From Phycisphaerae bacterium (GTDB taxonomy: Bacteria > Planctomycetota > Phycisphaerae > UBA1845 > Fen-1342), in the NCBI GenBank assembly GCA_050115495.1, contig JASFQK010000011.1, positions 94,490-158,489 of the forward strand: 64,000 nucleotides of DNA. The letters run 5' to 3'. Both the position numbers and the translations under genes were made by a program. Shown here piece after piece: positions 550 through 25,262 of this stretch (position 1 is its first letter; the number at the start of each line of letters is the position of its first letter). The notes below the pieces were generated by a model that worked only from the letters and a program-made list of their open reading frames with translations, was not told the origin of the DNA and ran no database searches.

Positions 550-2574
550 ATGATCCGCTTACCCATGACAATCCGTCTGGGAGGGGTCTTGCTGGTCGGC
601 ACGCTGGTGTTCGCCGAGGCGCAGACCCTGGCCCAATCGCCACCGGCCACGCAGCCGGTTCCCGCCCGCCAGCCGGCGTCCGCTGATCTGTCCGGCCTCG
701 AGGACATCGACCTGCTGGACCTGGAGGTTCCGGTCGTGGTTACGGCCGGCCGCCGACGGCAGGAGATTCACACGGTGACCTACGCGGCGAGCGTGATTAC
801 CGCCGAGGACATTCGTCGCGCCGGCGCCCACACCGTCGCGGACGCGCTGCGCCTGGTGCCGGGGGTTGACGTAGCGGCACTTTCGGCCACGGTGCCCGCC
901 GTATCGGCCCGCGGCTTCCACGGGTTCTACAACAGTCGCACACTCGTGCTGGTCGACGGCCGGCAGCTCTACGACTCGCTGTTTGGCGGCACGTCCTGGC
1001 ACGCCTGGCCGTTTCAGATCGCCGACATCGCCCGCATCGAGGTTATTCGCGGGCCGGGCGGCGTAGGCTGGGGAGGCAACACGCTCAACGGCGTGATCAA
1101 CATCGTCACGAAGGACCCCGCCGAACAGACGGGACTGACCTTCGAGGCCCTCGGCGGTTCACGCGGCACGCACAAGACGCACCTCGGCTACGGCATCCAG
1201 GAGGGCAAGCTCCGCCTTCGCGTCTCGGGGGAGTACGCCGCCAACGACGGCTTTGTCGACGGCGGTTCGCCGCTGTACCCGCTGAAAGACAGCTATCGCG
1301 TCGGCAACGTCGGCGTCCACGGCGTGTACGCGGCCAGTGCCGACGATACGTTCACGTTCTCCGGCGGCAGCGGTCTGGTCGGCGAGTGGGCGCCGCCCGG
1401 GGTGGTCAACTACGTTGGCGTGCAACGTTCGGACGCCCAGGCCAACTACCTCATGGGCAAGTGGGAGCACCGGCGAGGGGCGGGCGACTACGTCGAGCTC
1501 ATCGGCTTTGTCAACGACTACCACGGTCACGGCGCGTCGCCCTGGCTCGACTTCCGCTTCCAGCAACTGGCCCTGCAACTCAGCCACACGCTCGAGCCGG
1601 CGAAAAACCACACGCTGACCTGGGGCGTGGACACGCGGGCCGACCTGCTGGACGCTGGCGGAGCTGATCCCTACCTCATGTCCAAGAGCTTCGTGGGCAC
1701 AGGCCTGATCGGGCTGTACGTGCAGGACACGTGGCGCTTCGCGCCGAAATGGGCGCTCGACCTGGGCGCCCGGCTCGATTACGAGTTCTACAGCGGTTTC
1801 CAGCCGAGTGGCCGGGCGGCCTTGTCCTACGAACTGAGTAAGAACTCGCTCGTCTGGATCGCCGCCTCGCGTGCCTTCCAGATGCCTCCGGCCGCCGCCC
1901 GTTTCCTGAGTGTGCCGGCGGTCACGCCGCTCGTTCGGCTCAAGGCCAACCAGGACATGGCCAGCACGAACATGCTCGCCTACGAATTGGGGTATCGCGG
2001 CCGCTTCTTCGACCGGCTCGAAACCAACGTCAACCTCTACTGGCACCAGTATGGCAATCTCGGCCAGTTCAGCCCCGGGCTCGGCCCGCCCGGGTTGATC
2101 TGCGTGGTGAGCGACAACGATGTGCCGGCGACCACGTACGGGCTCGAGTTTGACGCCCGTTATCGCGCCACCGACCGGCTGACGCTCCTGGGCCACTACA
2201 CGCTCGAATTGCTCGACTGGCGCTCGTCGTGGGACTACACGATGGGCTCCGACCTGATCTGGCCGCCCAAGCACAAGTTCATGTTGGGCAGCAACTACGC
2301 GCTGACCGACGACCTCTCGCTCTCCGCGTATCTCCACTACGTGGACGCGGTCACTGCGGCGAACTCGACTTTTCCCCTGGCGGCCCGCCACCTCAGCCCG
2401 TATTTCCGCCTCGACCTGCGCGGCGAGTACGAGTTCTGGGACGACCGCGCCGCGATCGCCGTCGGCGTGCACAACCTGCTGGACAACGGACACGCCGAGG
2501 CTGGCAGTATGTTCCTGAACAGCGCCGAGGTCCCCCGCATCATCTACGCCGAATTCCGCCTGCGCGTGAAGTGA
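550..2574 (+). CDS. TonB-dependent receptor
   Basis: Signal peptide; plug motifs VITAEDI, ALRLVPGV, LVLVDGR, IARIEVIRGPG, GVINIVTK; beta-barrel-like C-terminal region. Confidence 0.9.
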   Translation: MIRLPMTIRLGGVLLVGTLVFAEAQTLAQSPPATQPVPARQPASADLSGLEDIDLLDLEVPVVVTAGRRRQEIHTVTYAASVITAEDIRRAGAHTVADALRLVPGVDVAALSATVPAVSARGFHGFYNSRTLVLVDGRQLYDSLFGGTSWHAWPFQIADIARIEVIRGPGGVGWGGNTLNGVINIVTKDPAEQTGLTFEALGGSRGTHKTHLGYGIQEGKLRLRVSGEYAANDGFVDGGSPLYPLKDSYRVGNVGVHGVYAASADDTFTFSGGSGLVGEWAPPGVVNYVGVQRSDAQANYLMGKWEHRRGAGDYVELIGFVNDYHGHGASPWLDFRFQQLALQLSHTLEPAKNHTLTWGVDTRADLLDAGGADPYLMSKSFVGTGLIGLYVQDTWRFAPKWALDLGARLDYEFYSGFQPSGRAALSYELSKNSLVWIAASRAFQMPPAAARFLSVPAVTPLVRLKANQDMASTNMLAYELGYRGRFFDRLETNVNLYWHQYGNLGQFSPGLGPPGLICVVSDNDVPATTYGLEFDARYRATDRLTLLGHYTLELLDWRSSWDYTMGSDLIWPPKHKFMLGSNYALTDDLSLSAYLHYVDAVTAANSTFPLAARHLSPYFRLDLRGEYEFWDDRAAIAVGVHNLLDNGHAEAGSMFLNSAEVPRIIYAEFRLRVK

Positions 2575-2582
2575 CGTTCTGG

Positions 2583-2631
2583 GTGAGCCGTCAGCCGTCA
2601 GCAACGAGCCTTGAGCCGTGAGCCCTGAGCC
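2583..2631. repeat. 7 x degenerate heptamer tandem repeat (gtgagcc-like)
   Basis: gtgagcc gtcagcc gtcagca acgagcc ttgagcc gtgagcc ctgagcc read directly. Confidence 0.85.
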
Positions 2632-2636
2632 GGAGT

Positions 2637-2719
2637 GCGGCATGCTGAAGCCTTAGGCGCCGGCATGTCTTTTCCACGTGCCAGGGTTCACATGCCGGCG
2701 CTGCGCTTCGGCATGCCAC
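2637..2719. repeat. Imperfect inverted repeat (REP-doublet-like) between convergent genes
   Basis: gcggcatgctgaagccttaggcgccggcatgt ... acatgccggcgctgcgcttcggcatgccac. Confidence 0.6.
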
Positions 2720-2780
2720 ACACCGTAGCGTCAGCCCCCCGTGGCCGACGTCGATTGCCGACAGATGCCCGACCTCGCGC

Positions 2781-2808
2781 CTTCTGACTCCTGACTTCTG
2801 GCTTCTGT
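2781..2808. repeat. 4 x heptamer repeat (cttctga-like)
   Basis: cttctga ctcctga cttctgg cttctgt. Confidence 0.75.
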
Positions 2809-2885
2809 CTCCCCCTTTTCCGAAACGCACTGCTCAAGAGCAGTGGCACACCGGCAGCGTCTTCGACGAACCTCGCTTCAGACCG

Positions 2886-3302
2886 TTATGACGCGGCGTC
2901 TGCTTTGCCCAGCAGCTCGGCCACCTTCGCCACCAGGGCTTTCGGCGGAATCGGCTTGTCGAAATACGCATCCACGCCCATCGCCTTCAGGTCTTCCGGC
3001 CGGCGAGGGTGGAAATCGAGCCCGCACTGGCTCGAGACGGCGGTGACGATGATGATCGGCAGGCTGGCCAGGGCCGGTTCCTCGCGAACTCGCCGCGATA
3101 GCGAGAACCCCGAATCGAGATTGCTCATCATCAGGTCGGTGATCAGCAGGGCAGGGGGCTGGCGGTGGATGCGCTCCCAGGCTTCCTCCGGATCGGTGCA
3201 GCATTCCACGCGATAGCCCTGCGGCTCGAGGATGTGCCGGTTGATCTCGAGGAAGTCGATGTCGTCGTCGACGAGCAGGATCAGAGGGGCTTCTGCGGAC
3301 AT
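2886..3302 (-). CDS. Single-domain response regulator (receiver)
   Basis: LLVDDD, ITDLMM (phospho-Asp), IIVTAV, FDKP; start trimmed to the ATG of MSAEAP. Confidence 0.9.
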   Translation of the reverse strand: MSAEAPLILLVDDDIDFLEINRHILEPQGYRVECCTDPEEAWERIHRQPPALLITDLMMSNLDSGFSLSRRVREEPALASLPIIIVTAVSSQCGLDFHPRRPEDLKAMGVDAYFDKPIPPKALVAKVAELLGKADAAS

Positions 3303-3399
3303 CCCTGGAGTCTCCTTCCGCCGGCGGCCGCAGCCGACGGGGCGCCGCCGCATGAGGGCGACGGCGACCCGCGGCCGGCCGGCCAACTCCTGACCGAGG

Positions 3400-5172
3400 T
3401 TAGACCCGATTGCGGGCCGAGTACTTCGTGTGCAGGAGGTGATGCGACCGCTCGCCGAGCGGCTTGCCGAGATACTTCTCGTAGATCTCCTTGATCGCCG
3501 GGTTATCGTGCGACTTGCGCAGCTCCTTACCCTCATCCTCGCGGTAGATGGCGTCGATGCGCGCCTGGCGCACGCTGTTGTCGGTCATGCGCGGCTGTCC
3601 GCCGCCACCGATGCAGCCGCCCGGGCAGGTCATGATCTCGACGAAGTGATACTCCGCCTCGCCCTTGCGGATGCGCTCGATGACCTTGCGGGCGTTGCCC
3701 AGCCCGTGGGCCACCGCGACCTTCAGCGTCACACCTTCGAGGAACTTCCACTCCGGCAGAGCACCGGTGATCTTGGCCGAAGCCTCCTTCACGCCTTCGA
3801 GGCTCTCGATCGGCGCGACGTGCAGGTTCTCAAACGGCAGCGGCTTGCCAGTGACGATTTCCCAGGCCGTACGCAGGGCCGCTTCCATCACGCCGCCGGT
3901 GTTGGCGAAGATGTCCGCCGCACCGGAGGACAAGCCGAGCGGGGCGTCCATCTCTTCGTCCGGCAGCGCCGGGAAATTGATCCCGGCCTGCTTGATCATG
4001 CGGCCGAGCTCCCGCGTGGTCAGCACGGCGTCGACGTCGCGCACGCCGCTGTCGTTCATCTCCGGCCGCTCGCACTCGTACTTCTTCGCCGTGCACGGCA
4101 TCACCGACACGACGAAGATGTCCTCGGGCTTCTTGCCGATCTGCTCGGCGTAGTACGTCTTGGCCACCGCTCCGAACATCTGCTGCGGCGACTTGCACGT
4201 CGACACGTTGTCCAGCATGTCCGGGTAGAAGTGCTCGATGTACTTGATCCAGCCCGGCGAGCAGCTCGTGAACTGCGGCAGGGCGACCGGCTTCTTGTCG
4301 ACCAGGGCCTGCTTGAGCCGCATGAGCAGCTCCGTGCCCTCTTCCATGATGGTCAGGTCGGCGGTGAAGTTCGTGTCGAACACGCCGTCGAACCCGAGCC
4401 GCCGCAGCGCGGCCGTCATCTTCCCGGTCACCAGCGTGCCCGGCGGATAGGCGAAGCACTCGCCCAGCGCCGCCCGGATGGCCGGCGCCGTCTGCACGAC
4501 CACGTGCTTGTTCGGGTCGTCCAGCGCGTCCCAGACGGTGCGGATATCGTCCTTCTCGCTGATGGCTCCGACGGGGCACACCGCGGCGCACTGCCCGCAC
4601 TGCACGCAGACGACGTCGCTCAGGTCCTGGCAGAACGCCGGTCCGATGACCGTGTCAAAGCCGCGGTTCTGCGCGAAGATCGCGCCGACGCCCTGCACCT
4701 CGCCGCAGACGGTCACGCACCGCCGGCAGAAGATGCACTTGCCGGCGTCGCGCGTCAGCCCGGCGGTGCTGAAGTCCAGCATCCGCTTGTTGCGCTCACC
4801 TTCATACGGGATGTCCTGGATGCCCAGTTCCCGAGCTACCGCCTGCAACTCGCAGTCTTCGCTGCGGGCGCAGGTCTGGCAGTCGCCGTTGTGCTCGGAC
4901 AGCAGCAGCTCGACGACCGTCCGCCGGGCTTCGCGCACGCGGCGGCTGTTCGTCTTGACTTTCATGCCCTCAGTCGCCGGCGCGGTGCACGAGGCCACGA
5001 GCGAGCGGGCCCCTTCGACCTCCACCGTGCACACGCGGCAGGCACCGATGGCCTGCACGTCTTTCAGGTAGCACAGCGTGGGAATGTGCACCCCGGCCTG
5101 CTGGGCGGCCTGGAGGACCGTCGCCCCTTGGGGCACCTCCACGGGTACGTTGTCAATCGTCAGTTTCGGCAT
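3400..5172 (-). CDS. hydA: [FeFe]-hydrogenase catalytic subunit, group A multimeric type (HydA/HndD-like), copy 1
   Basis: N-terminal 2Fe-2S, His-ligated and 2x4Fe-4S motifs; H-cluster motifs FTSCSPGW, MPCTAKKYE, EIMTCPGGCIGGGGQP; C-terminal SHHLLHT. Confidence 0.95.
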   Translation of the reverse strand: MPKLTIDNVPVEVPQGATVLQAAQQAGVHIPTLCYLKDVQAIGACRVCTVEVEGARSLVASCTAPATEGMKVKTNSRRVREARRTVVELLLSEHNGDCQTCARSEDCELQAVARELGIQDIPYEGERNKRMLDFSTAGLTRDAGKCIFCRRCVTVCGEVQGVGAIFAQNRGFDTVIGPAFCQDLSDVVCVQCGQCAAVCPVGAISEKDDIRTVWDALDDPNKHVVVQTAPAIRAALGECFAYPPGTLVTGKMTAALRRLGFDGVFDTNFTADLTIMEEGTELLMRLKQALVDKKPVALPQFTSCSPGWIKYIEHFYPDMLDNVSTCKSPQQMFGAVAKTYYAEQIGKKPEDIFVVSVMPCTAKKYECERPEMNDSGVRDVDAVLTTRELGRMIKQAGINFPALPDEEMDAPLGLSSGAADIFANTGGVMEAALRTAWEIVTGKPLPFENLHVAPIESLEGVKEASAKITGALPEWKFLEGVTLKVAVAHGLGNARKVIERIRKGEAEYHFVEIMTCPGGCIGGGGQPRMTDNSVRQARIDAIYREDEGKELRKSHDNPAIKEIYEKYLGKPLGERSHHLLHTKYSARNRV

Positions 5173-5194
5173 GGATTACGCTCTCCTTTCCAGG

Positions 5195-8100
5195 TTAGTC
5201 CTGGTGGCAGTCGTGGCCGAAGTCGCAGCGCAGACAGCGATGCGCCTCGCGCACCGCCACCGTCTCCGCCCACGGCAGCTCGACTTCCTGGAAGTTGTTC
5301 TTTCGCTTATTCACGGGGATCGTCCGCATCTTCGCCCGGGCGTACTCGACCGGCTCGGCGTCCGGATCGAAGGTCGTGTCCGCGGGCTTCGTTTCACGCC
5401 AGAAGGCGTGCTCGGCACCGGTCAGGGTCTTGTCGATCGACACCGCCGCCTTCTCGCCGGCACCGATCGCCGCCACCACCGACCACGGTCCCATGACCGC
5501 GTCGCCGCCGGCGTAGATCCAGTCCACGGACGTCTTGCAGGTAACCGGGTCGGCCTGGATGAAGCCGCCCGCGTTCATCGCCAGCTTCGTGCCGTCCAGC
5601 ATCTCGCCCGTGTCGAGCTTCTGCCCGATCGCCGCGATGACCTGGTCGGCCTCGACGACGAAGTCCTCTTCGCTGCTGCCCACCGGACGCCGGCGGCCGC
5701 TGCGGTCGAACTCGCCCAGGACCATGTGCCGGCACTTCACGCCCGTCACGCGGCCCTTCTTGCCGACCAGCTCCAGCGGAGCCACCAGCACGGCGATGCG
5801 CACGCCCTCGTGCTCGGCCTCGTCCACCTCTTCGGCGTAGGCGGGCATTTCCGCACGCGTCCGCCGGTACAGGATCGTGACCGATTCGGCGCCGAGCCGC
5901 TGGGCGGTGCGGGCGGCGTCGATGGCCGCGTTGCCGCCGCCGATCACCACCACGTTCTTGCCGACGGGGACGCTACCGCGGATGTTGTATTGCCGCAGGA
6001 AGGCCAGGGCGTCGACGACGCCTTCCTGGTCTTCACCGGTAATGCCCAACTGCGTGCCGCGCGGGGCGCCGACGGCGACGTATACCGCCTCGTAGCCCTC
6101 ATCGCGCAGACTCTGGAGCGTGAAGTCGCGGCCGAGCCGCATGTTCGTCTCGATATCGACGCCCAGCCGCTCGATCATACGAATCTCGCGGGCGAGCTCT
6201 TCACGCGGCAGCCGGTACGCCGGAATGGCCTGCACCAGCATGCCACCCGGTCGCGGTTCGGCTTCGAGCACCTTCGGCCGATAGCCGAGTCGCGCCAGGA
6301 AGTACGCACAGGACAGGCCGGCCGGACCGGCTCCGATCACCGCAATCTTGCGGCCGGCGTTCTTCTCGCTCTCGCGCACCTCGGGCAACTGCACCGTGAC
6401 TTCCTGCTCGGCCATGAAGCGCTTCAGGGCGCGGATGGCCACCGCCTCGTCCAGCGAGCCGCGGCGGCACTTGTCCTCGCACGTGTGGAAGCACACGCGG
6501 GCACAGACCGACGCGAACGGGTTGCGGTTGCGGTGCAGGGACAGGGCCTCGGCGTAGCGCTTCTCGCCGATGAGCGAGACGAACCCGGGCACATCCACAC
6601 TGGCCGGGCAGGCGCTCTGGCAGGGGGCCCGCGTCAGGGCCGCGCAGACGCCGGCAGGGCAGTGCTTGTCGCGGATGTGCGCTTCGTACTCGTCGCGGAA
6701 GTAGCGGATCGTCGAGAGCACCGGGTTGGGGGCCGTCTGGCCCAGACCGCAGAGCGAGGCGTCCTTGATGACGTTGCCCAGCTCGATCAGCCTCTCGATG
6801 TCGCCTTCCTCGCCGTGCCCCTCGCAGATGCGGGTCACGATCTCCAGCATGCGCTTGGTGCCGACGCGGCACGGCGGGCACTTGCCGCACGATTCGTCCT
6901 GGACGAAATCCAGGAAGAAGCGGGCCACGTCCACCATGCACGTGTCCTCGTCCATCACGATCAGGCCGCCCGAGCCCATGATCGCGCCGAGCTCGTTCAG
7001 CGACTCGTAATCGACCGGGACGTTCAGATGCTCTTTCGGGATGCAGCCGCCCGAAGGACCGCCCATCTGGGCCGCCTTGAAGCGCTTGCCGCCCGGGATG
7101 CCGCCGCCGATATCGTAGATGATCTCGCCCAGCGGCATGCCGATGGGCACCTCGACTAGGCCCGTGTTGTTCACGGCGCCGGCGAGGGCGAAGACCTTCG
7201 TGCCGCGGCTCTTCTCGGTGCCGTACGAGGCGAACCAGTCGGCGCCCTTCTGAATGATCGGGGCGACGTTGGCGAACGTCTCGACGTTGTTCAGGCAGCT
7301 CGGCTTGCCCCACAGACCCTGCTGGGCCGGGAAGGGCGGTCGCGGACGCGGTTCGCCGCGGTTGCCCTCGATCGACGTCATCAGCGCGGTTTCTTCGCCG
7401 CAGACGAACGCCCCGGAGCCCATGCGGACCTCGATGTCGAAGTCGAAGCCGCGGCTCATGATGTTCTTGCCCAGCAGCCCGTACTCGCGGGCCTGCTCGA
7501 GTGCTTTCTTGAAGCGCTCCACGGCCAGCGGGTACTCGGCCCGGATGTACGCGTAACCCTGGCTCGCGCCGATGGCGTAGCCGGCGATGGCCATGCCCTC
7601 GATCACGCTGTGCGGGTCGCCTTCGAGGACGCTGCGGTCCATGAAGGCCCCGGGGTCACCTTCGTCACCGTTGCACAGGATGTACTTCACGTCACCCGGC
7701 GACTTCCGCGTAAACTCCCACTTCAGGCCCGTCAGGAAGCCGGCCCCGCCGCGGCCGCGCAGACCGGACTTCTTCATCTCGGCGATGACCTGCTCCGGCG
7801 TCATGTCCGCCAGCGCCTTGCCCAGCGCCTGGTAGCCGTCGCGGGCGATGTATTCTTCGATCTTCAGCGGGTCGATCACGCCGCAGTTACGCAGTACGAT
7901 CTTCACCTGCTTCTGGAAGAAGCCGATCTCGTGCAGCCCGGGCACCGTCTGGCCGGCGATCGTCTTGTGCACCAGCCGCTCGACCACGCGGCCCTTCAGC
8001 AGGTGTTCTTCGACGATCTCCGCCGCGTCGTCCGGACGCAGCCCCTGGTAGAACACGCCGTCGGGATAGACGACGGCCACCGGCCCCGCGGCACATGGCC

Positions 8101-8248
8101 CCAGGCAGCCGGATTCGATGATCATGATTTCTTCGTCGAGCCCCTGGCGTTTGATCGCCGTCCGCAGGGCCTCGCCGACCTCCAGGGCCCCGGAGGCGAT
8201 GCAGCCGCCGCCCGTGCAGAGGAGGATGTGCGTTCTGATATTACTCAT
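5195..8248 (-). CDS. HydB/NuoF-like FMN-NADH subunit fused to a GltD/NfnB-like FAD/NADP(H) oxidoreductase module
   Basis: GLRGRGGAGF, NGDEGDPGAFMDR, GGPSGGC, ESCGKCPPCR, CPAGVC; then APCQSACP, CARVCFHTCEDKC, IGAGPAGL, IGGGNAAID, YRRT, IYAGGD, RCLRCD. Confidence 0.9.
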   Translation of the reverse strand: MSNIRTHILLCTGGGCIASGALEVGEALRTAIKRQGLDEEIMIIESGCLGPCAAGPVAVVYPDGVFYQGLRPDDAAEIVEEHLLKGRVVERLVHKTIAGQTVPGLHEIGFFQKQVKIVLRNCGVIDPLKIEEYIARDGYQALGKALADMTPEQVIAEMKKSGLRGRGGAGFLTGLKWEFTRKSPGDVKYILCNGDEGDPGAFMDRSVLEGDPHSVIEGMAIAGYAIGASQGYAYIRAEYPLAVERFKKALEQAREYGLLGKNIMSRGFDFDIEVRMGSGAFVCGEETALMTSIEGNRGEPRPRPPFPAQQGLWGKPSCLNNVETFANVAPIIQKGADWFASYGTEKSRGTKVFALAGAVNNTGLVEVPIGMPLGEIIYDIGGGIPGGKRFKAAQMGGPSGGCIPKEHLNVPVDYESLNELGAIMGSGGLIVMDEDTCMVDVARFFLDFVQDESCGKCPPCRVGTKRMLEIVTRICEGHGEEGDIERLIELGNVIKDASLCGLGQTAPNPVLSTIRYFRDEYEAHIRDKHCPAGVCAALTRAPCQSACPASVDVPGFVSLIGEKRYAEALSLHRNRNPFASVCARVCFHTCEDKCRRGSLDEAVAIRALKRFMAEQEVTVQLPEVRESEKNAGRKIAVIGAGPAGLSCAYFLARLGYRPKVLEAEPRPGGMLVQAIPAYRLPREELAREIRMIERLGVDIETNMRLGRDFTLQSLRDEGYEAVYVAVGAPRGTQLGITGEDQEGVVDALAFLRQYNIRGSVPVGKNVVVIGGGNAAIDAARTAQRLGAESVTILYRRTRAEMPAYAEEVDEAEHEGVRIAVLVAPLELVGKKGRVTGVKCRHMVLGEFDRSGRRRPVGSSEEDFVVEADQVIAAIGQKLDTGEMLDGTKLAMNAGGFIQADPVTCKTSVDWIYAGGDAVMGPWSVVAAIGAGEKAAVSIDKTLTGAEHAFWRETKPADTTFDPDAEPVEYARAKMRTIPVNKRKNNFQEVELPWAETVAVREAHRCLRCDFGHDCHQD

Positions 8249-8273
8249 GGACGGGTATTCTCCCTGTTGTCGC

Positions 8274-8645
8274 TCAGCTCTTGATCAGGTATTCCACGAC
8301 CGGCCGGCCGCGCACCACGTGCTCCCGCACGATCTCACCGATCTTGTTCTTGTCCAGCTTGCCGTAACGGAAGCTGCCGCCGGCGTTGTCCGTCAGCGTC
8401 AGCATCGGCTCCTGGTCGCACAGCCCCGCACAGCCGCTTTGCTGCACTTGCACGTTGTTCGCCTGCACCGCGGTCAGGGCGTTCATCAGCGACGTCATGA
8501 TGTCACGCGCGCCGGCGGCGATGCCGCAGGTGCCCATGTGCACCGTGACCCGCATGTCCTTCTGTCCCGTCCGCAGATCCAGTTGTCCCTGGACCTCCTG
8601 CTGCATGGCCTTCAGGTCCGCCGGGCTGTTGATGCGCTTCGCCAT
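8274..8645 (-). CDS. Thioredoxin-like [2Fe-2S] ferredoxin subunit (HndB/HydD-like)
   Basis: HMGTCGIAAGA and SGCAGLCDQEP motifs; start trimmed to MAKRINS. Confidence 0.85.
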   Translation of the reverse strand: MAKRINSPADLKAMQQEVQGQLDLRTGQKDMRVTVHMGTCGIAAGARDIMTSLMNALTAVQANNVQVQQSGCAGLCDQEPMLTLTDNAGGSFRYGKLDKNKIGEIVREHVVRGRPVVEYLIKS

Positions 8646-8647
8646 GG

Positions 8648-9187
8648 CTACGCACTCCTCTTCTGTTCGGCCGCGTCGCCGGTGCGGTAGGGATCGAGCA
8701 CGGCGTCGAGACGGTTGGGCTTCACGCGGTGATGCACGTCGTCGTCGATCATGATGGCCGGGGCCAGGCCGCACGCCCCGAAGCAGCGCGCCACTTCGAG
8801 CGTGAACAGCCGGTCGGCGGTCGTCTCACCGACGTCGATGTTCAGCTTCTGCTTGAGCGTGTCCAGCACGCGCTTCCCGCCGCGCACGTAGCAGGCCGTT
8901 CCCAGGCACACCCGCACCAGGTGCTTGCCCCGCGGCTTCGTCGAGAAGAACGAGTAGAAGCTCACCACGCCCGCGACCTCGCTGTAGGACTTGCCCAGTC
9001 CCAGCGCGATCCGCTTCAGAGCCACCTCGGGCAGGTACCCGAAGATGCTCTGGGCGATCTGTAGCACGGGGATGAGCGCTCCCGGCTTGTCGCGATACTC
9101 CTCCAGAACCGTGTCCAGCCGGCTGAGCAGCTCCTCCTCGGAGACCTCCTCGCCACACTGGCACTGCACTTTCTCGTCTTGCGCCAT
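8648..9187 (-). CDS. hydC: NuoE-like [2Fe-2S] subunit (HydC/HndA), copy 1
   Basis: LIPVLQIAQ..GYL, VVSFYSFF, VCLGTACYVRG, RCFGACGLAP. Confidence 0.9.
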   Translation of the reverse strand: MAQDEKVQCQCGEEVSEEELLSRLDTVLEEYRDKPGALIPVLQIAQSIFGYLPEVALKRIALGLGKSYSEVAGVVSFYSFFSTKPRGKHLVRVCLGTACYVRGGKRVLDTLKQKLNIDVGETTADRLFTLEVARCFGACGLAPAIMIDDDVHHRVKPNRLDAVLDPYRTGDAAEQKRSA

Positions 9188-9259
9188 ACTCAACTCCAGA
9201 TTGCTCTGCCGCGGAAACCTCGATTACGAAGATCGCCGCTGGCGACCCGGGCGACGCCC

Positions 9260-9826
9260 TCAGCGGAGGACGTCCGTCGCCGCCAGCGCCGCTTCGATCA
9301 ACCGTCCAACCTCTTGCGCGACGGCCAGTCCGCCGCGCTCCCGGCCGATCGTCTCGGCCAGTTCCTTCACGTTTATCTGCCACTCCTGCTCGCCTGCGGC
9401 CTGGCCATTCTGGCCGCCCACCCGCAGGCGGAAGCGGAAGTCTATCTCCGGGCTCGTGCACACCACAGACGACAGCGTCGCCGCCAGGTCACCCAGCGGT
9501 GTCCGGTCCACGTGCGTCAGGCCCAACTCCGCCCGGACCGCCGTCCCGCCCAGGTCCGACCGTCCGATCGTCAGGTCGCCGCCGCTGGCCGCCGCCGCTG
9601 CCCGAAACAGCGCCAGTCCCAGCCCCGTTCGTTTGCCCTGTTTCGTCGTGTAGAACGGGTCGAGGGCATCATCCGGCGACACCTTCAGCCCGCGACCGTC
9701 GTCCTCGATCTCGATCCGCAGCCGGTCTTCCCGCGGCAGTGCCTCGACCGTGACCGTGATCACCTTCGCTTCCGCCCGTAGCGAGTTCTCGATCAGGTCC
9801 AGGATGTGCAGCGACAGCTCACGCAA
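9260..9826 (-). CDS. GHKL/HATPase_c ATP-binding protein (kinase-like) of hydrogenase operons
   Basis: (M)RELSLHILDLIENSLRA, DDGRG, DPFYTTK, GLGLAL, HVDRTPLGD; TTG start overlaps the PHP gene stop. Confidence 0.8.
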   Translation of the reverse strand: MRELSLHILDLIENSLRAEAKVITVTVEALPREDRLRIEIEDDGRGLKVSPDDALDPFYTTKQGKRTGLGLALFRAAAAASGGDLTIGRSDLGGTAVRAELGLTHVDRTPLGDLAATLSSVVCTSPEIDFRFRLRVGGQNGQAAGEQEWQINVKELAETIGRERGGLAVAQEVGRLIEAALAATDVLR

Positions 9827-10562
9827 CGCGCACCTCCCGTTTGCCGTTGCCACGCATCGCCTGCACCAGCTCCGCGAACGTCGGCGCCTCCATCACCAGC
9901 GTCGTCTGCACGCTGCCGATGTCGCCGAGGTAGTGGCTGTCCGACGACGCCACCACCGCCAGTCCCAATGCCGCCACCGCCTCCGGCAGGGCTTTCGCCG
10001 CTCCGCCGGCCGGCGTGAAGACCTCGATGGCGTCAAAGCCGGCGTCCGCCGGGAAGACGCCCAGTTGACTCAACACGCTGAACGACGGCCGGTTCACGTG
10101 AGCCGCCAGCGCCAGCCCGTCGTGCTCGTGGATCAGCCGGACCGCCGCCGGCAGATCCAGCCCCGACGCCACCGCCAGCAGCCGCTTCTCGCGGCCGACG
10201 GCTCGCCCCGCGGCGTCCATCAGCACCTGCGACCCAAACTGCTGCTCATCGCCGGCGCTCGCTACCGGCAGCGTGCCGAGCACCTCGCTCGCCGCGGCCT
10301 CCGCCGACTTCACGTCGGGGAAGAGCCCTAGCACGTGGCATTCCTCGACCGTCGTGATTTCCATACCGGCGACGACCGACAACCGCTCGCCCGCCGCCTC
10401 CTGCGTCGCCGCCGTGTTACCGGCCGCGTTGTGGTCGCAGATGGCGATCATGGCCAACCCGCGGTCTACGGCAGCCTGCACGATCGCCGGCGGAGTCATC
10501 TCCTCCGACGCACAGGGCGACAGCGCCGTGTGGATGTGCAGATCGGCCGCGAACGTCTTCAC
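9819..10562 (-). CDS. PHP-domain phosphoesterase
   Basis: DLHIHT, AICDHN, GMEITT, AAHVNR, SSDSHY metal-binding motifs. Confidence 0.9.
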   Translation of the reverse strand: MKTFAADLHIHTALSPCASEEMTPPAIVQAAVDRGLAMIAICDHNAAGNTAATQEAAGERLSVVAGMEITTVEECHVLGLFPDVKSAEAAASEVLGTLPVASAGDEQQFGSQVLMDAAGRAVGREKRLLAVASGLDLPAAVRLIHEHDGLALAAHVNRPSFSVLSQLGVFPADAGFDAIEVFTPAGGAAKALPEAVAALGLAVVASSDSHYLGDIGSVQTTLVMEAPTFAELVQAMRGNGKREVRVA

Positions 10563-10909
10563 CGGCGAGGTCCTCGCAACCCGAGCTCGTACATCTGGCC
10601 CGCGATGTCGAACGCGGTATCGTCCGATACGAACAGCGCGATGCCTTCCTCGATCGCCTTGGCCCGCACAGCGTCGTCCGGTTTGCGACCCATGGCGAAG
10701 ACCACCGCGGTCAGACCCGCGTGCAGGGCGACCGCGATCACGTTCAGGTGCACCTGAACCGTCACCAGCACCCCGTCCGCCGGCGCGTGCGCCAGCACGT
10801 CACTCAGCAGATCCGACGCATACCCGCCGGCGACGGTCTTCGTGTCGACCGCCACCTCGGGTGTCAAGGTCTGCCAGTCGAGCCGTTCGGCCAGCATTTT
10901 CAGGTTCAT
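10559..10909 (-). CDS. DRTGG-domain protein
   Basis: GGYASDLLSDVLA motif typical of hydrogenase-linked DRTGG proteins; 4-bp overlaps with both neighbours. Confidence 0.8.
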   Translation of the reverse strand: MNLKMLAERLDWQTLTPEVAVDTKTVAGGYASDLLSDVLAHAPADGVLVTVQVHLNVIAVALHAGLTAVVFAMGRKPDDAVRAKAIEEGIALFVSDDTAFDIAGQMYELGLRGPRR

Positions 10910-12468
10910 TCGGCCTTCTCCTTCTTCCGCTCACCGCGTGGACACGCATCGCGGTCCGCCCGCCCCAGCACGATGTCTTCCGCCAGAGCGGCACACGTCG
11001 GCGCCCCGCACTGCCCACAATCGTCCCCGGGCAGACTGCGGGCCAGCCGGTCGATCCGGGCGAGCTTCTGCACCGCCTTGGCCATGTCGTCGTCCAGCCG
11101 CAAACCCGGTCGCGGCGTACGCTCAGCCGTTCGTCGTTGGGCCTTTGCCTCTCCGTCCGGCGTTGCCGCGGCATGATGCCACCGGCGGGAACCGAGGTAC
11201 GCATCGGCGGCCAGCAGCGGCGATCCGAAGCAGCCTTCGTCGCACGCCCACGGTTCGATAATCTCGACGTCTTCGGCCAGACCGTCTTCGACGTCGTCCA
11301 GGACGCGGAGCACGTGTTGCAGGCCGGTGACCCGCATCACGCCGTTCTCGTCCGTCGTCGGCGTGGCCGCCACGTACGCCGCCGCCGGCTGCTCCTCGGT
11401 ATGCTTGCCCGTCAGCCGCGGCATCACGGCTGCCCGCAGCGCCGCGGGCGAAACGACCTCCACCCCATCTCCGACCACCAGTGTCCGCTGAGCCGGGCAG
11501 CTCACCACGCAGACGACGCGCTCGCCCTTGAGCGTCGCCCGCAACGCCACCACCGCCGTATCAAACGGCGCTACGTGCGGCAGCAATCCCGGGAACCGCG
11601 TCTCAATCAGGTTGACCACGGCCGGACACGCCGGCGAGATCACCGGCCAACCCGCGGCCTCGGTCTTCGCGTACTCGACGACCGCCTGCCGCAGGGCCAC
11701 TTCCCAGCCGGCGGTAACGCGCACGTCCCGGAAACCCAGTTGCCGAATTTCGTTCAGCACGGCCGCTGGGTCAGCATCAGCGCCAAACTGCGCCAGACTC
11801 TCGGCAGAAACCACCAAAACGGCGTCTTTCGCGGTCGGCAACGCGTCCCCCAACCCCGTCACGCCCATCGTTCCCGTCGGACACCCGGCGATGCACGCCG
11901 TGCAGTCGATGCACAGGTAGTCCAGCACGTCCGGTCGCCCGCGGAACACCCGTACCGCCTGCGTCGGACAGGCGTGCAGGCAGCGCAGACTTTGCCGGCA
12001 ACGCTCGGGCGCCACGTGCAGCGAATGCCGCCCGACGCCGTACAGGGCAGGGGGGCGAAGCGACAGGCCGAAGCACAGCTGCGTGCCTTTGCCCGGCGTC
12101 GATTCGATCGTGAACGAATCCGCACTCTTTCGGATATTGGGCAGACCCATGCCCGCCCCGAAACCGAGCTGCCGCGCCTCGGCGCTGGCCGTCGAGAAGC
12201 CTTCGCGCAGGGCTTGCTCGACGTTCGGGATGCCGGGCCCCGTGTCCGCCACCTCGACCTCGAGATGTCCGTTATCGAGCACGGCGCTCAGGTGGCCGCG
12301 ATGGGCGTGGATGACGACGTTCATCTCGGCTTCGTACGCCGCGATCATCGCCCGCCGGAGCACCGCTGGATCTGCGCCGACCCGCTTGAGCTGCTCCTTG
12401 AGCGCACGAGATGCGCGGCCCCCGCGCTCATAGTCGCCGCCCTCAATCTCGTAGCGGAACGTCGGCAT
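10906..12468 (-). CDS. RsbT-like Ser/Thr kinase (anti-sigma type) fused to Fe-S/degenerate [FeFe]-hydrogenase domains
   Basis: N-terminal AYEAEMNVVIHA, DTGPGI, GFSTA, GAGMGLPNI; then CRQSLRCLHACP, CIDCTACIAGCP, ISPACPAVV, VSCPAQ, ACDEGCFGSP, DCGQCGAPTC...CP. Confidence 0.8.
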   Translation of the reverse strand: MPTFRYEIEGGDYERGGRASRALKEQLKRVGADPAVLRRAMIAAYEAEMNVVIHAHRGHLSAVLDNGHLEVEVADTGPGIPNVEQALREGFSTASAEARQLGFGAGMGLPNIRKSADSFTIESTPGKGTQLCFGLSLRPPALYGVGRHSLHVAPERCRQSLRCLHACPTQAVRVFRGRPDVLDYLCIDCTACIAGCPTGTMGVTGLGDALPTAKDAVLVVSAESLAQFGADADPAAVLNEIRQLGFRDVRVTAGWEVALRQAVVEYAKTEAAGWPVISPACPAVVNLIETRFPGLLPHVAPFDTAVVALRATLKGERVVCVVSCPAQRTLVVGDGVEVVSPAALRAAVMPRLTGKHTEEQPAAAYVAATPTTDENGVMRVTGLQHVLRVLDDVEDGLAEDVEIIEPWACDEGCFGSPLLAADAYLGSRRWHHAAATPDGEAKAQRRTAERTPRPGLRLDDDMAKAVQKLARIDRLARSLPGDDCGQCGAPTCAALAEDIVLGRADRDACPRGERKKEKAE

Positions 12469-12483
12469 CAGTCGGGTCCGCTC

Positions 12484-12819
12484 TTACGCTCCAAGGCACT
12501 TGTAAAGGCGACCGCACGTCTCGAAAAGCCCGCACGGCGAAACCAGCACCTGCGTGCCATGTTCGCTGGCGGCGGCCAGCATCGCCTCATCCGGCTGCTG
12601 CCCGTTGACCAGGCAGATCCCCGGAATGTCCATCAGCTCGGCGACGCGCAGCAGGTGACTGCTCGCCAGGTTGGTCACCAGCAGCGTGTGTTCGCCGGCC
12701 GCCGCCAGCAGGTCGCTGATGCGGTCGCCCGCGTAGACCTGGTCGATGCTGACCCGCGCCCCGTTGGGCTGGCCATGCACCCGGGCTCCGATTCTGACTG
12801 CCAATTCTTCGAGCTTCAT
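12484..12819 (-). CDS. DRTGG-domain protein
   Basis: VYAGDRISDLLA, LLVTNL, GLFETCGRLY; start trimmed to MKLEEL. Confidence 0.75.
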   Translation of the reverse strand: MKLEELAVRIGARVHGQPNGARVSIDQVYAGDRISDLLAAAGEHTLLVTNLASSHLLRVAELMDIPGICLVNGQQPDEAMLAAASEHGTQVLVSPCGLFETCGRLYKCLGA

Positions 12820-13060
12820 CCTGTCACCCGAGGTCTTGCGGCCGGGCGGGCCGGTTACACGTTTTGGTGCGGATTTCGGTCGAGAACGCGCGCAGCAACC
12901 AAGACGGCTTGCGCCAATACAGACTGGCAAGCGGCGGGCCAGACGCCGTCGGAGTGGCGCAGTTACCGGCGGCGACGGGCCGGGATACCACGGACCCTGA
13001 TGAACATGTTTACCGCTGTGAAACCGCGACGAACAGTCAGGACCCGCGCCAGTCAGTTCA

Positions 13061-13082
13061 CACTGTTACGATCGTCACAGTG
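13061..13082. promoter_or_regulatory. Candidate Rex operator upstream of hydrogenase operon 1
   Basis: 22-bp near-perfect palindrome cactgttacgatcgtcacagtg with core TGTTA-N6-TCACA. Confidence 0.6.
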
Positions 13083-13221
13083 AGTTGAAAACGGGCACAG
13101 CGGCAAATCACCAGCATCGACCGGGACCTAACACAGTGTGCAACGCGGAAGACCGGTATATCAATCGGCGTTCTACCGCCGATCTGTGCGAGCCGCACGC
13201 GCCGGCAGTAGAGCTTTCGCT

Positions 13222-14451
13222 CTATCGCCGCGCGTTTCGCCACACCTCGAGCGCCGCCGGGAAGGGGCCCAAAGCCCGCTCGAAGATGCCGAGCGAGTAG
13301 GCGATGGCCAGGCCGTAGTTGGTTATGGGCACTCCGGCCCGCTGGCAGTGCAGGATGCGCGAGAGCATCTCCCGCCGATTCTGCACGCAACCGCCGCAGT
13401 GCACGACGAGCCGGTACTCGCCGAGGTCCGCGGGGAAGTCGTGGCCCTGCATGGTGGTGAAGTCGAGCCGCCCGCCGACGTACTGCATCAGCCAGCGGGG
13501 GATTTTCACGCGCCCGATGTCGTCGACGATCGGATGGTGCGAGCAGGCCTCGGCGATCAGCACGCGATCACCGGGGCGGAGCGATTCGATCGCCAGCGCT
13601 CCGCGCACGAGCTCGGTCAGATCGCCCTTGAACCGCGCGAAGAGGATGGAGAACGACGTCATCGGCACCGCCGGCGGCGTGTCGGCGGCGACTTTGAGGA
13701 ATGCTTGTGAATCTGTAACGACGATGGCGGGTGGGCGCTTGAGGCGATCGAGGGCGTCGCGCAGCTCGCGCTCCTTCACCACCATGCAGTACGAGTCGTT
13801 GTCGAGCAGGTCGCGGATCGTTTGCACTTGGGGCAGGATCAGCCGGCCCTTCGGGGCCTCCTTGTCGATCGGTACGACCAGAACGGCGGCTTCGCCCGGC
13901 GGAACCAGGTCGCCGATGATCGTCGGCGTGTTGATGAGCTCGTCGGGGGCGGAGCGGATGAGGGCCTCGCGCACTTCGAGCACGCCCTCGCCGCGACTGG
14001 CGACCGTCTGGACGACGCGGAGCTTTTTCTCTTCGAGCCGGCCGGCGACCTGCGGGTCGGGCGGGGCGAGGTCGGTCTTGTTGAACACGACGATGACGGG
14101 CACTGAGCGGCCGGTCAGTTCCTGGACGAGTCCGTCTTCGAACTCGCCCCAGCGTCCGGCTTCGGCGACGACGATGCCGACGTCCGTGCGGTCAAAGACG
14201 CGTCGCGTCCGCTCGATCCGCATGTCGCCGAGCGCCCCGTTGTCGTCGATGCCGGCGGTGTCGATGAACAGCACCGGCCCGATCGGCAGCATCTCCATCG
14301 GCTTCTCAACCGGATCGGTCGTCGTCCCGGCGGTGTCGGAGACGATCGACACATCCTGCCGCGTCAGCGCATTGAGCAGCGACGATTTCCCAACGTTCCG
14401 CCGGCCGAAGAGGCCGATGTGCATCCGCATTCCGCGTGGGGTGGTTTGCAT
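13222..14451 (-). CDS. hydF: [FeFe]-hydrogenase maturation GTPase HydF
   Basis: GRRNVGKSS, GTTTDPV, DTAG, NKTD, PKGRLILPQ, EACSHH and HCGGC cluster ligands. Confidence 0.97.
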   Translation of the reverse strand: MQTTPRGMRMHIGLFGRRNVGKSSLLNALTRQDVSIVSDTAGTTTDPVEKPMEMLPIGPVLFIDTAGIDDNGALGDMRIERTRRVFDRTDVGIVVAEAGRWGEFEDGLVQELTGRSVPVIVVFNKTDLAPPDPQVAGRLEEKKLRVVQTVASRGEGVLEVREALIRSAPDELINTPTIIGDLVPPGEAAVLVVPIDKEAPKGRLILPQVQTIRDLLDNDSYCMVVKERELRDALDRLKRPPAIVVTDSQAFLKVAADTPPAVPMTSFSILFARFKGDLTELVRGALAIESLRPGDRVLIAEACSHHPIVDDIGRVKIPRWLMQYVGGRLDFTTMQGHDFPADLGEYRLVVHCGGCVQNRREMLSRILHCQRAGVPITNYGLAIAYSLGIFERALGPFPAALEVWRNARR

Positions 14452-14555
14452 ATGAGTATGATAGCGGGGAATCGGGGGTTGCCGAGAAGGTGGTGGTCGG
14501 GCTCTGTACCGGACGTGTTACCGCAGCGGTTCCCGGCGCGCCGGGATGCCGACCG

Positions 14556-14869
14556 TCTTCAGCCCGCGGAGCGGGCGATGGGATGTAGCCCCGGGTGAGC
14601 GAGCGGCCGCACAGCGGCTGATCGCGAAACCCGGGGGAAACGGCCGGCCTGCGTCCCAACCCGCGCAGCGGGTGACGGAAGGCGGTGCGGGACGTATGAC
14701 CGGCGATGCGTTCCGTCGCCCGCTTCGCGGGCTGAAGAGGGGTTGACGATGCGCGTGTCCCCGGGTTCCGTCCGCCGGTTGCGATGCATCGTGGGAGCGG
14801 TCGTCGATGGCGGCAAGGGATCTGTCGCGCATTTCGCGCTCGCTCGCCGGCGGACTCCACCCGGGGCTA
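14556..14869. repeat. REP/MITE-like element with interleaved inverted repeats
   Basis: tcttcagcccgcggagcgggcga (14556-14578) pairs with 14716-14738 (1 mismatch in 23); tagccccgggtg (14586-14597) pairs with cacccggggcta (14858-14869). Confidence 0.7.
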
Positions 14870-14955
14870 GATTCCGCGGTCCCTGCGGGACCAGTGGGCT
14901 TGCGAGCTCTGTGTCGGCGGTTGGACGTTGAAGAGCACACGCGAGGCACGCTCTG

Positions 14956-15040
14956 TCCGAGCCGCGACCGGTAGGGAGCTGGTTGCGGGGTGTGGGGCTG
15001 TTTTTGCGGATGACCGCCTCGCTGCCGCTCGGGGCTCGGA
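14956..15040. repeat. REP-doublet-like imperfect inverted repeat
   Basis: tccgagccgcgaccggtagggagc ... gcctcgctgccgctcggggctcgga. Confidence 0.55.
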
Positions 15041-15147
15041 TGGGCAGCCGGCCCTGTGCGGGGCGATGGACTTCGTGGCCGATGTTGAACGCCGACGGAC
15101 GCCCAGCTTGCGCGCGGCGGGCGGGCGCGGTTCGCAGGCCGCAGCGC

Positions 15148-15249
15148 TCAGTCGTCCCGACGGGACTGGGAGGAGAGAGAGGGGGACTCTGCCGCCATGG
15201 TCCCAGCACTTCGTACTGGGCTACAATCAGCCGTCCCCTTCGGGGACTG
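15148..15249. repeat. REP-like hairpin cluster
   Basis: tcagtcgtcccgacgggactg and tcagccgtccccttcggggactg hairpins flanking cccagcacttcgtactggg. Confidence 0.6.
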
Positions 15250-15351
15250 AAGGTGCAGGGCGGGCCCGGTGCCTCGGTGTCAGCAAGAGGCCGGATCGGC
15301 GCGGGCTCGCGCGGGTGGACAGCGCATGTCCCATCGTTTTGGAGGTACCCG

Positions 15352-15858
15352 GTGAGAAGCAGAATCACGCCTGAGAAGGTCGCGAGCGCGAAGTCTAACG
15401 ACGAGTTGTTCGAGTTGCTCTCTGACGAGCTTGATCGGCTGAATCCGAAGGGCCCGAGAGCGGACGACGAGTTTGTCGCAGAACTCAGGCGGCTGCCGCG
15501 CGGTCTCCGTGCGATGGCGGCCACCTATGAGCTCGACGTATCGATGACACTTGACGACATCGGGTGGCATTTCGGGAACTGGCACCACAAGAGCCTTGCC
15601 AAGGAGACTCTCGCCGGACTGACAGAGCTCGGTGCGAGGGAGTTGGCCAGCCTCTTTCGCCAAGCGTTCCTGCTGGCTCAGGAGTATTGGGTTGAGCTGG
15701 ACCGGGAGGATTGGTCCGAATGGTACCCCGATTCGCCACTTGCGCAGGCGGTCGCCCCGCTCAACGAAGCTGCCTGGGCCATCCTCGAACCCAGGGACAG
15801 GGGCATAATGGGCTACTGGCTCGAATACGCCCGCAAGCACCCGGAACGGCTTCGATAG
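15352..15858 (+). CDS. Hypothetical protein, DMP19/DUF4375-like
   Basis: GGAGG then GTG start; LPRGLRAM...DDIGWHFGN...TLAGLTELGA...YARKHPE resembles DUF4375; composition looks less GC-biased than neighbours. Confidence 0.6.
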   Translation: MRSRITPEKVASAKSNDELFELLSDELDRLNPKGPRADDEFVAELRRLPRGLRAMAATYELDVSMTLDDIGWHFGNWHHKSLAKETLAGLTELGARELASLFRQAFLLAQEYWVELDREDWSEWYPDSPLAQAVAPLNEAAWAILEPRDRGIMGYWLEYARKHPERLR

Positions 15859-15874
15859 GGCGGGCCGTTCGGCG

Positions 15875-17278: not shown

Positions 17279-17288
17279 GAAGCCTGCG

Positions 17289-18719: not shown

Positions 18720-18720
18720 A

Positions 18721-21401: not shown

Positions 21402-23435
<2,034 letters not shown>

Positions 23436-25246: not shown

Positions 25247-25262
25247 TTCTGGCTCCGATCAG

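Follow-up and report, generated by a model that had tools for sequence, protein, structure and literature searches.

The stretch of DNA analysed here (the window) comprises 64,000 nucleotides of a Phycisphaerae bacterium, contig JASFQK010000011.1, positions 94,490 to 158,489 of the forward strand. It contains an operon for an [FeFe] hydrogenase in which the HydB subunit is fused to a GltD-like module. The fused gene is a single open reading frame (ORF) on the minus strand (5195–8248, 1017 amino acids) with an ATG start and the sequence AGGGAG upstream. The genes of the operon share one strand, are transcribed in the order hydC-hydD-hydB-hydA and are separated by 2, 25 and 22 nucleotides. Its features are given below, where nicotinamide adenine dinucleotide and its phosphate are written as NAD(H) and NADP(H), and flavin mononucleotide and flavin adenine dinucleotide as FMN and FAD.

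5195–8248, minus strand: hydB::gltD-like fusion (BfuB sub-type I, see below), 1017 amino acids; from the ORF, Pfam, motifs and an AlphaFold2 model
8006–8236, minus strand: thioredoxin-like [2Fe-2S] (B5-type) amino-terminal domain, C11/C16/C48/C52; from Pfam 2Fe-2S_thioredx, residues 5–81
6644–7921, minus strand: FMN/NAD(H) core with the B1 [4Fe-4S] cluster, C454/457/460/500; from Pfam, structure matches and residue conservation
within 6644–7921, minus strand: core signatures AFM 201–203 (nucleotides 7640–7648), F281 (7406–7408) and GGPSG 396–400 (7049–7063)
within 6644–7921, minus strand: predicted Zn site C437/H524/C530/C535, by analogy with the 3C1H site described in PMC11829005
6623–6643, minus strand: 7-residue linker between Zn-site C535 and the first module cysteine, C543; from the cysteine pattern
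5225–6622, minus strand: permuted GltD/StnC-like module; from PDB matches and alignment
within 5225–6622, minus strand: predicted module clusters C547/C586/C590/K609 and C543/C594/C1005/C1008, the second set from alignment
within 5225–6622, minus strand: predicted FAD site (GAGPAG, R679) and NADP(H) site (GGGNAA 5924–5941, YRR 5861–5869)
3400–5172, minus strand: hydA, group A [FeFe] catalytic subunit, 590 amino acids; from NF040763, motifs and Pfam
8274–8645, minus strand: hydD, small thioredoxin-like subunit, 123 amino acids from the ATG at 8645, with three cysteines and a histidine; from Pfam and the ribosome-binding site
8648–9193, minus strand: hydC, NuoE-like, C1 [2Fe-2S] cluster C96/101/137/141; Pfam E-value 2e-49, NF005722 above cutoff

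Judged from its motifs and domain matches, the fused protein is a HydB/NuoF core (residues 1–535), followed by a circularly permuted GltD-like module with two [4Fe-4S] clusters, FAD and a YRR motif (residues 543–1008). Pfam assigns 2Fe-2S_thioredx (5–81), Complex1_51K (158–329), SLBB (353–401) and NADH_4Fe-4S (440–524) to the core, and Fer4_20 (DPD_II, 532–617) and Pyr_redox_2 (634–931) to the carboxy-terminal part. No Fer4 dicluster was found by Pfam in the fused protein, unlike in the second HydB of the window, which has Fer4 diclusters at residues 635–686 of its ORF; by domain comparison, the GltD-like module occupies the position of the ferredoxin domain of canonical HydB. An initial annotation of this DNA, made from the sequence, had described just such a module in place of the ferredoxin-like tail, and the domain search bears this out. 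The HydB motifs it named lie where it put them (DEGDPGAFM from residue 195, GGPSG from 396 and CPAGVC from 530, nucleotide 6661), and the switch to the module, placed near 6630, corresponds to C543 at nucleotide 6622. Within the module, GAGPAG starts at residue 639, GGGNAA at 770, YRR at 794 and RCLRC at 1004. The G+C content at third codon positions is 0.91 in the core versus 0.90 in the module. In the canonical HydB of the window, 12 residues separate the cysteine equivalent to C535 (629) from the first ferredoxin cysteine (642). The AlphaFold2 model of the fused protein, made with 83 sequences, has a mean predicted local distance difference test score of 84.5 and a predicted template modelling score of 0.80; Foldseek matches its halves separately, one to HydB/NfnB(BC) and the other to NfnA/StnC.

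Relatives were collected in two ways. At the protein level, the best 120 of 7,999 scored candidates were taken, 119 of them other than the fused protein itself. A scan of GTDB with the module alignment gave at least 601 pattern matches, of which at least 595 were confirmed; the best 80 loci were examined. The 119 relatives share 73–87% identity over 97–100% of the length, and the few named ones belong to Phycisphaerae, other Planctomycetota, Hydrogenedentes and one Abyssobacteria; three full-length relatives labelled Hydrogenedentes (P0068, P0097 and P0119) are 73–74% identical. The 80 loci are from Planctomycetota, Spirochaetota, Kiritimatiellota, Lentisphaerota, Verrucomicrobiota, Bacteroidota, Omnitrophota and others. 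In all 77 loci with upstream DNA the fused state is present, in 75 by a strict test; L072 and L074 failed this test, yet are single ORFs. The linker between C535 and C543 measures 7 residues in 77/77 loci where the pattern was read, and a CxxCxxCxxxC motif after residue 600 is present in none of the 120 proteins. The junction is bridged by contigs of three runs: 3300–6871 in X1, the possible source run, with no differences; 6575–6959 in X2, from a separate sediment study, with 12 differences in 385 nucleotides; and 6564–6714 in the RNA library X4, with no differences, a match that does not imply transcription. An assembly or annotation artefact, which the initial annotation had kept in view, is ruled out by the full-length relatives, the fused loci and these bridging contigs; nothing was found in its favour, and we give it practically no chance.

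In a quick tree of 53 rows, for which the close fused loci were thinned to about a third, the fused core belongs to a clade of 28 fused cores with 96% support. The tree needs three changes for the fused state and is also compatible with one origin. In two Omnitrophota loci (L053:2349–3767 and L070:4231–5637), the fused operon lies between a separate GltD-like gene upstream and a canonical hydCDBA operon downstream.

The partner subunits are conserved too. Wherever the flanking DNA extends far enough, HydA comes after the fused gene (72/72 loci) and HydC with the C1 ligands before it (66/66 loci). In these same 66 loci hydD is present in only six, so that HydD is an optional subunit; the four-subunit hydrogenase expected at the outset holds for the operon described here, but a fourth subunit is not general. 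HydA scores 896.7 bits against the NCBIfam model NF040763 (NADH-dependent group A [FeFe] hydrogenase; cutoff 765) and its H-cluster motifs P1 to P3 are intact (TSCSPGW, MPCTAKKYE and EIMTCPGGCIGGGGQP). Among 68 full-length HydA proteins of the related loci, P1 is present in 67 and P2 and P3 in all. Pfam detects no carboxy-terminal [2Fe-2S] domain (A5 cluster) in HydA, and matches HydD weakly to 2Fe-2S_thioredx (E-value 4e-5).

The core resembles that of bifurcating enzymes. Residues 3–540 match the HydB, NfnB and StnB chains of bifurcating complexes of solved structure with E-values of 1e-186 to 1e-248, while complex I NuoF matches much more weakly. Losey et al. (2020, PMC7311640) describe three signatures that set bifurcating beta subunits apart from non-bifurcating ones: A/E-x-M near the NADH site, a Phe at the FMN site and GGPSG in the SLBB domain. 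All three are present in the fused core, with numbering identical to that of the NfnB subunit of Thermococcus sibiricus NfnABC, given in PMC12018979 as AFM 201–203, F281 and GGPSG 396–400. A201, M203, F281, G396 and the predicted Zn ligands H524, C530 and C535 are conserved in 119/119 relatives, as are the NAD-binding residues F171, K176 and E285 and the B1 cysteines; C437 is conserved in 118, and C11, C16, C48 and C52 in 118–119. In the GTDB loci, GGPSG and AFM/AYM are each present in 71/71. Elsewhere in this genome, three HydB/NuoF proteins with ferredoxin tails carry AFM, Phe and GGPSG. TFK and Tyr, without GGPSG, are found in the short, tail-less HydB on contig C22 and in HoxF; the complex I NuoF likewise has Tyr at the position of F281 and lacks GGPSG. 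Tail loss thus usually goes with signature loss, but not in the fused protein.

The module is most similar to the NADPH domain of NfnA/StnC. For residues 540–1009 the top PDB matches are 9bov chain A (E-value 1e-118), 8oh5 chain C (2e-105) and 9n5u chain A (3e-104); NfnB is weaker (4ylf 9e-86, the next NfnB 4e-82), followed by GltD and DPD. As in StnC and NfnA, the cluster cysteines C1005 and C1008 are carboxy-terminal (RCLxC), whereas in NfnB this motif is amino-terminal. K609 aligns with K170 of Caldicellulosiruptor saccharolyticus NfnA and Sporomusa ovata StnC and is a Lys in 119/119 relatives and 80/80 loci. In C. saccharolyticus NfnA, K170 is reported to ligate the FAD-proximal cluster (PMC11829005). 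S. ovata StnC is described as having a Lys-ligated cluster and an FAD that acts as a non-bifurcating NADPH port, while NfnB carries Glu (PMC10482914), and the Lys ligand is taken there and in PMC12018979 to mark such a port. The NfnB of this genome has the Glu ligand (VGHLERF); the Glu-ligated proximal [4Fe-4S] cluster of NfnB type is not found in the fused module. By its ligand pattern, the module is predicted to be of the StnC/NfnA type, Lys-ligated and with a non-bifurcating FAD, and not of the Glu-ligated NfnB type. Of the label GltD/NfnB-like that it first received, the GltD half stands and the NfnB half does not.

The YRR motif is conserved in 119/119 relatives and 80/80 loci, and GxGNxA in 119/119. 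YRR is reported to accompany NADP(H) use in DsrL-2 and to bind the 2'-phosphate in NfnB (PMC7596348). Together with the near-invariant NAD(H)/FMN residues of the core, these motifs support the two pyridine-nucleotide sites that had been proposed from the window. Could the module flavin instead serve another acceptor, such as an artificial or sulfur acceptor or a partner enzyme, with NADP(H) binding incidental? GltD-like modules serve sulfur and other oxidoreductases according to PMC7483475 (SudA, Nso and SfrB), and more distant fusions adjoin glutamate-synthase-like FMN proteins. The conservation of YRR and GxGNxA speaks against this, and no such partner appears in the 80 loci among the window-derived queries, the other genes there not being annotated; we regard it as very improbable.

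A further alternative is that ferredoxin is retained, either at the outer cluster of the module or through a second, NfnB-like bifurcation at its FAD, giving an enzyme with four substrates (H2, NAD, NADP and ferredoxin). In NfnB both clusters lead to ferredoxin (PMC10482914), a second FAD bifurcation was proposed by Zheng & Huang (2024, PMC11406978), and R679, the equivalent of NfnB R201, is conserved in 119/119 relatives. However, the Arg is also present in non-bifurcating StnC (PMC10482914), and R679 is therefore not diagnostic for bifurcation. Lys replaces the Glu ligand of bifurcating NfnB, that of this genome included, which argues against the FAD site suggested by Zheng & Huang. Pfam finds no NfnA-like gene in the fused operon to accept the high-potential electron. 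We consider retention of ferredoxin unlikely.

The reading that we favour, at about an even chance, is that of a cytoplasmic HydA-B-C(-D) [FeFe] hydrogenase that would carry out FMN-centred bifurcation or confurcation between NAD(H) and NADP(H), without ferredoxin. Electrons from H2 would pass from the H-cluster through the HydA clusters to B1, FMN and C1. One pair would go to NAD+ as hydride, and the other, via the gated C1 of HydC, to the outer [4Fe-4S] cluster of the module, the Lys-ligated [4Fe-4S] cluster, FAD and NADP+. The branch that in the canonical enzyme leaves C1 toward B3/B4 and ferredoxin would thus be rerouted through the module to NADP+, with the net reaction 2 H2 + NAD+ + NADP+ <=> NADH + NADPH + 2 H+. 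C1 is reported to be required for coupling in Stn (PMC10482914). The reading is favoured by the fixed spacing at which the module starts, 7 residues past the Zn-site Cys by which the ferredoxin domain is anchored in canonical HydB, by a core that keeps its signatures and Zn motif and by the conserved HydA and C1-bearing HydC; the Lys ligand and YRR motif of the module and the thermodynamic window given next lend it further support.

With potentials of -414 mV for H2 and -280 mV for NAD (PMC9304861) and -370 mV for NADP (PMC6288185), the computed equilibrium H2 pressures are about 3 Pa for NADH alone, 98 Pa for NADH and NADPH coupled and 3,255 Pa for NADPH alone. From these values, the enzyme would serve either to dispose of NADH as H2, with NADPH as the second donor, or to form NADPH from H2 at low pressure, with NAD+ as the second acceptor. 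Coupling would widen the range for NADH venting about 30-fold, or permit NADPH formation from about 100 Pa H2.

Several points weigh against strict coupling. The gap between NAD and NADP is only about 90 mV, far below that between NAD and ferredoxin, which makes its payoff small. NADPH could already be obtained from H2 by way of the NfnAB and the two canonical HydABC sets of this genome. On a tether of 7 residues, a module of 470 residues may be unable to make the carboxy-terminal swing needed for HydABC gating, and the bifurcation signatures are correlative and could be inherited remnants. In the StnABC and NfnABC complexes described in PMC11829005 and PMC12018979, the StnC/NfnA module feeds the cluster chain of the A subunit, not C1; neither the AlphaFold2 model nor Foldseek places the module within the complex, on the C1 or the HydA side. 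Purification, assay or structure of a HydB-GltD fusion was not found in open-access PMC and bioRxiv.

The main alternative is an uncoupled NADP(H)-linked hydrogenase. Its module would be connected to the HydA chain, as the module is in StnC, or to C1 without gating; H2 would equilibrate directly with NADP(H), and the FMN site would act as a slow side port for NAD(H) or as a mere relay. The StnC/NfnA-like module, which there feeds the mid-potential A-chain, is consistent with this, as is the non-bifurcating HydB without B3/B4 of Syntrophomonas wolfei cited in PMC11406978 and PMC9304861; NADPH and H2 are computed to be near equilibrium at kPa H2. On the other hand, the NAD-binding residues and bifurcation signatures are fully conserved, unlike in the non-bifurcating-type HydB of this genome, and electrons of NADPH would pass straight to NAD+ if both nucleotide sites were ungated. 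We hold an uncoupled enzyme to be a doubtful, though not a small, possibility.

If coupling between NAD(H) and NADP(H) is strict, HydBC-type bifurcation can run with NADP(H) replacing ferredoxin across a gap of about 90 mV. The standard potentials of NAD and NADP being nearly equal, the enzyme would then offer an assay without ferredoxin in which conformational gating can be told apart from thermodynamic coupling, a distinction still to be made for the Bfu family. This would, to our knowledge, be the first known Bfu-type bifurcation between two pyridine nucleotides, and would change how metabolic models read the 'group A3' hydrogenases of many genomes of Planctomycetota, Spirochaetota, Kiritimatiellota, Lentisphaerota and Bacteroidota. 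Coupled or not, the result would be an H2-driven, NADPH-regenerating enzyme.

Fused genes were also surveyed in 301 genomes sampled from the phylum. Behind each of the ten closest (L002–L011) comes a HydA at 66–78% identity; downstream of more distant fusions (46–54%) there are NuoG-like proteins that lack an H-cluster match, or no similar protein at all. At 11 distant loci, Pfam shows molybdopterin (formate-dehydrogenase-type) A subunits in two and an FdhD gene nearby in one. Two have a short Fer2 arm, with a glutamate-synthase-like FMN protein behind it in one of them; a third locus likewise encodes such an FMN protein. One locus has a HydA that belongs to another clade, and four have no A gene directly downstream. 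Among the distant HydB::GltD fusions L113–L123 (genomes G179, G015, G101, G225, G088, G063, G124 and others), short Fer2 arms lie in some cases beside PPDK-domain proteins. From this distribution the fused B subunit looks like a portable module. A broader proposal, which we put forward tentatively and somewhat short of an even chance, is that these are ferredoxin-free bifurcating hydrogenases strictly coupling the reduction of NAD+ and NADP+ by H2, and that BfuC with BfuB::GltD forms a portable two-port module also for formate-dehydrogenase-type and other A subunits.

At L116 (10119–14088, G057:C25), and also at L115 and L122, a hydC-hydD-hydB::gltD unit has no A gene directly downstream; the contigs are short, and A-like arms occur elsewhere in these genomes. 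These could be A-less NAD/NADP units, or could take A in trans. An A-less fused B was considered as evidence for a module acting via C1, but this was dropped, since in G163 the A arm is located about 5 kb away behind inserted genes, and G057, G107 and G082 have short contigs with A-like arms elsewhere.

Across contigs C11, C19, C22, C7, C8 and C28, the genome itself carries four operons for group A [FeFe] hydrogenases, which differ in sub-type, together with a Hox-type NiFe hydrogenase, NfnAB and complex I; apart from the fused operon, two canonical HydABC sets and one short HydABC are present. At L106 (2602–7004, G000:C27), a single-ORF NuoE-NuoF fusion with a ferredoxin tail is followed by a shortened StnC-like protein without YRR and Lys ligand; the locus looks like a degenerate or repurposed NfnABC. 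At L107 (4260–8862, G000:C9), the gamma subunit of a 2-oxoacid:ferredoxin oxidoreductase is fused to a permuted GltD-like module, which is Glu-type and has YRR and a carboxy-terminal ferredoxin-like segment.

The fused operon is flanked by a response regulator gene, an accessory cassette, a maturase region and a canonical hydrogenase operon.

2886–3302, minus strand: stand-alone response regulator, downstream of hydA (Pfam Response_reg)
9260–12930, minus strand: upstream accessory/regulatory cassette of five genes (Pfam)
9260–9853, minus strand: HATPase kinase (Pfam)
9819–10562, minus strand: PHP protein (Pfam)
10559–10909, minus strand: small protein
10906–12468, minus strand: anti-sigma-like HATPase fused to an [FeFe]-hydrogenase-like/FeS domain (Pfam)
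12484–12930, minus strand: small protein
13222–19803, minus strand: H-cluster maturase region (TIGR03918, Pfam domains)
13222–14451, minus strand: hydF (TIGR03918 above cutoff)
17289–18770, minus strand: probable hydG, named from its radical SAM/BATS domain content
18721–19803, minus strand: probable hydE, named from its radical SAM/BATS domain content
21402–28454, minus strand: neighbouring canonical hydrogenase operon, for comparison (Pfam, NCBIfam)
27816–28454, minus strand: rex
27286–27819, minus strand: canonical hydC
25263–27299, minus strand: canonical hydB with the 2x[4Fe-4S] tail
23525–25246, minus strand: canonical hydA
21402–23489, minus strand: sensory hydrogenase-kinase (Pfam)

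The response regulator is also found downstream of hydA in L026–L028 and L033, and the five-gene cassette is also upstream in L026–L028, L033, L034 and L105, the six loci with hydD. The protein encoded at 10906–12468 consists of an anti-sigma-factor-like HATPase, a ferredoxin domain, a degenerate Fe_hyd_lg_C and a carboxy-terminal FeS domain. Between hydG and hydF lies a gene of the aspartase/fumarase lyase family (15875–17320, minus strand; Pfam Lyase_1). The HydB core of the canonical operon is 51% identical to the fused core. The sensory [FeFe]-hydrogenase-like domain at 21402–23489 is fused to a histidine kinase (BfuT/group C-like), and its gene precedes those of a response regulator and a receiver-kinase hybrid. 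In 2500–13300 a search revealed no sigma-70-like promoter and three terminator-like sites, all on the opposite strand and below chance expectation; a Rex-box pattern has no matches in the window. Three large proteins with Laminin_G_3 and/or Chlam_PMP repeats (53674–62355, plus strand) are probably surface proteins, unrelated to the hydrogenase.

The entry IPR017896 we take to be the 4Fe-4S ferredoxin-type domain, that is, B3/B4. Schut et al. (2022, PMC9304861) include it in their definition of BfuB, and describe the BfuABC family as using NAD(H) and ferredoxin as two of three substrates; with a ferredoxin-type domain in the set, the fused protein falls outside strict Bfu membership, though its core resembles Bfu. 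Zheng & Huang (2024, mSystems, PMC11406978), working from genomes only, describe sub-type I BfuB, in which B3/B4 is replaced by DPD_II and a carboxy-terminal FAD/NAD(P) domain. They report 45 sub-type I BfuAB(D)C clusters in Hydrogenedentota, with D often lost and BfuA of the M3a type, and list Spirochaetota, Planctomycetota, Verrucomicrobiota, Kiritimatiellota and Hydrogenedentota as its phyla. Three HoxF proteins, they observe, show this swap as well, and they raise the idea of a second bifurcation centre at the FAD. The fused operon is identical in architecture to sub-type I (group A3): it has the B3/B4 swap, a C-D-B-A cluster with optional D and an M3a-type BfuA with P1 to P3 and without A5, and the phyla agree with those of the relatives found here; for a place in the sub-type I clade of their concatenated ABC tree, the relatives labelled Hydrogenedentes and the clade of fused cores in our quick tree offer indirect support. 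NuoF-GltD fusions do exist elsewhere, as the initial annotation had stated. The design had already been described from genome data in 2024 and is common in anaerobes, so that it is not new and this copy is no discovery; its interest lies in the chemistry.

Compared with the HydABC/HndABCD enzymes (Acetobacterium woodii 7q4v, Thermoanaerobacter kivui 8a6t, Thermotoga maritima 7p5h and the NiFe-HydB 7t2r), the fused system shares the HydA H-cluster, the HydC C1 cluster, all bifurcation signatures and the HydB core of thioredoxin-like, FMN, SLBB, B1 and Zn elements. In the structural alignment this core is 57–62% identical to HydB of A. woodii and T. kivui. However, where these enzymes have the B3/B4 ferredoxin-docking domain, the fused protein has a 470-residue FAD/NADP(H) module. 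The non-bifurcating NADH-dependent HydAB(C) of S. wolfei and Syntrophus aciditrophicus, as described in PMC7311640, lack B3/B4, as does the fused protein; their HydB has T/S-x-K/S/A and Tyr and no GGPSG, whereas the fused protein has AFM, Phe and GGPSG.

The large subunit NfnB of NfnAB (NfnSL; 4ylf, 5jca) has the same fold, YRR and conserved Arg as the fused module. Its Glu-ligated low-potential cluster, amino-terminal RCLxC and NfnA partner have no counterpart there; the nfnA of this genome adjoins its own nfnB on contig C8. The best match to the module is in the Bfu-type transhydrogenases StnABC/NfnABC (S. ovata 8oh5, C. saccharolyticus 9bov, T. sibiricus 9n5u), with 40–44% identity and with the permuted topology, Lys-ligated cluster, NADPH site and BfuBC core in common; StnC was described as a GltD-NuoG fusion by Kremp et al. 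(2020, PMC7483475). In StnABC/NfnABC the module is inserted in a NuoG-like A subunit as a mid-potential input, and BfuB keeps B3/B4 for ferredoxin. In the fused system, B carries the module at its carboxy terminus, in the place of the ferredoxin domain, and an uninterrupted HydA serves as the A subunit.

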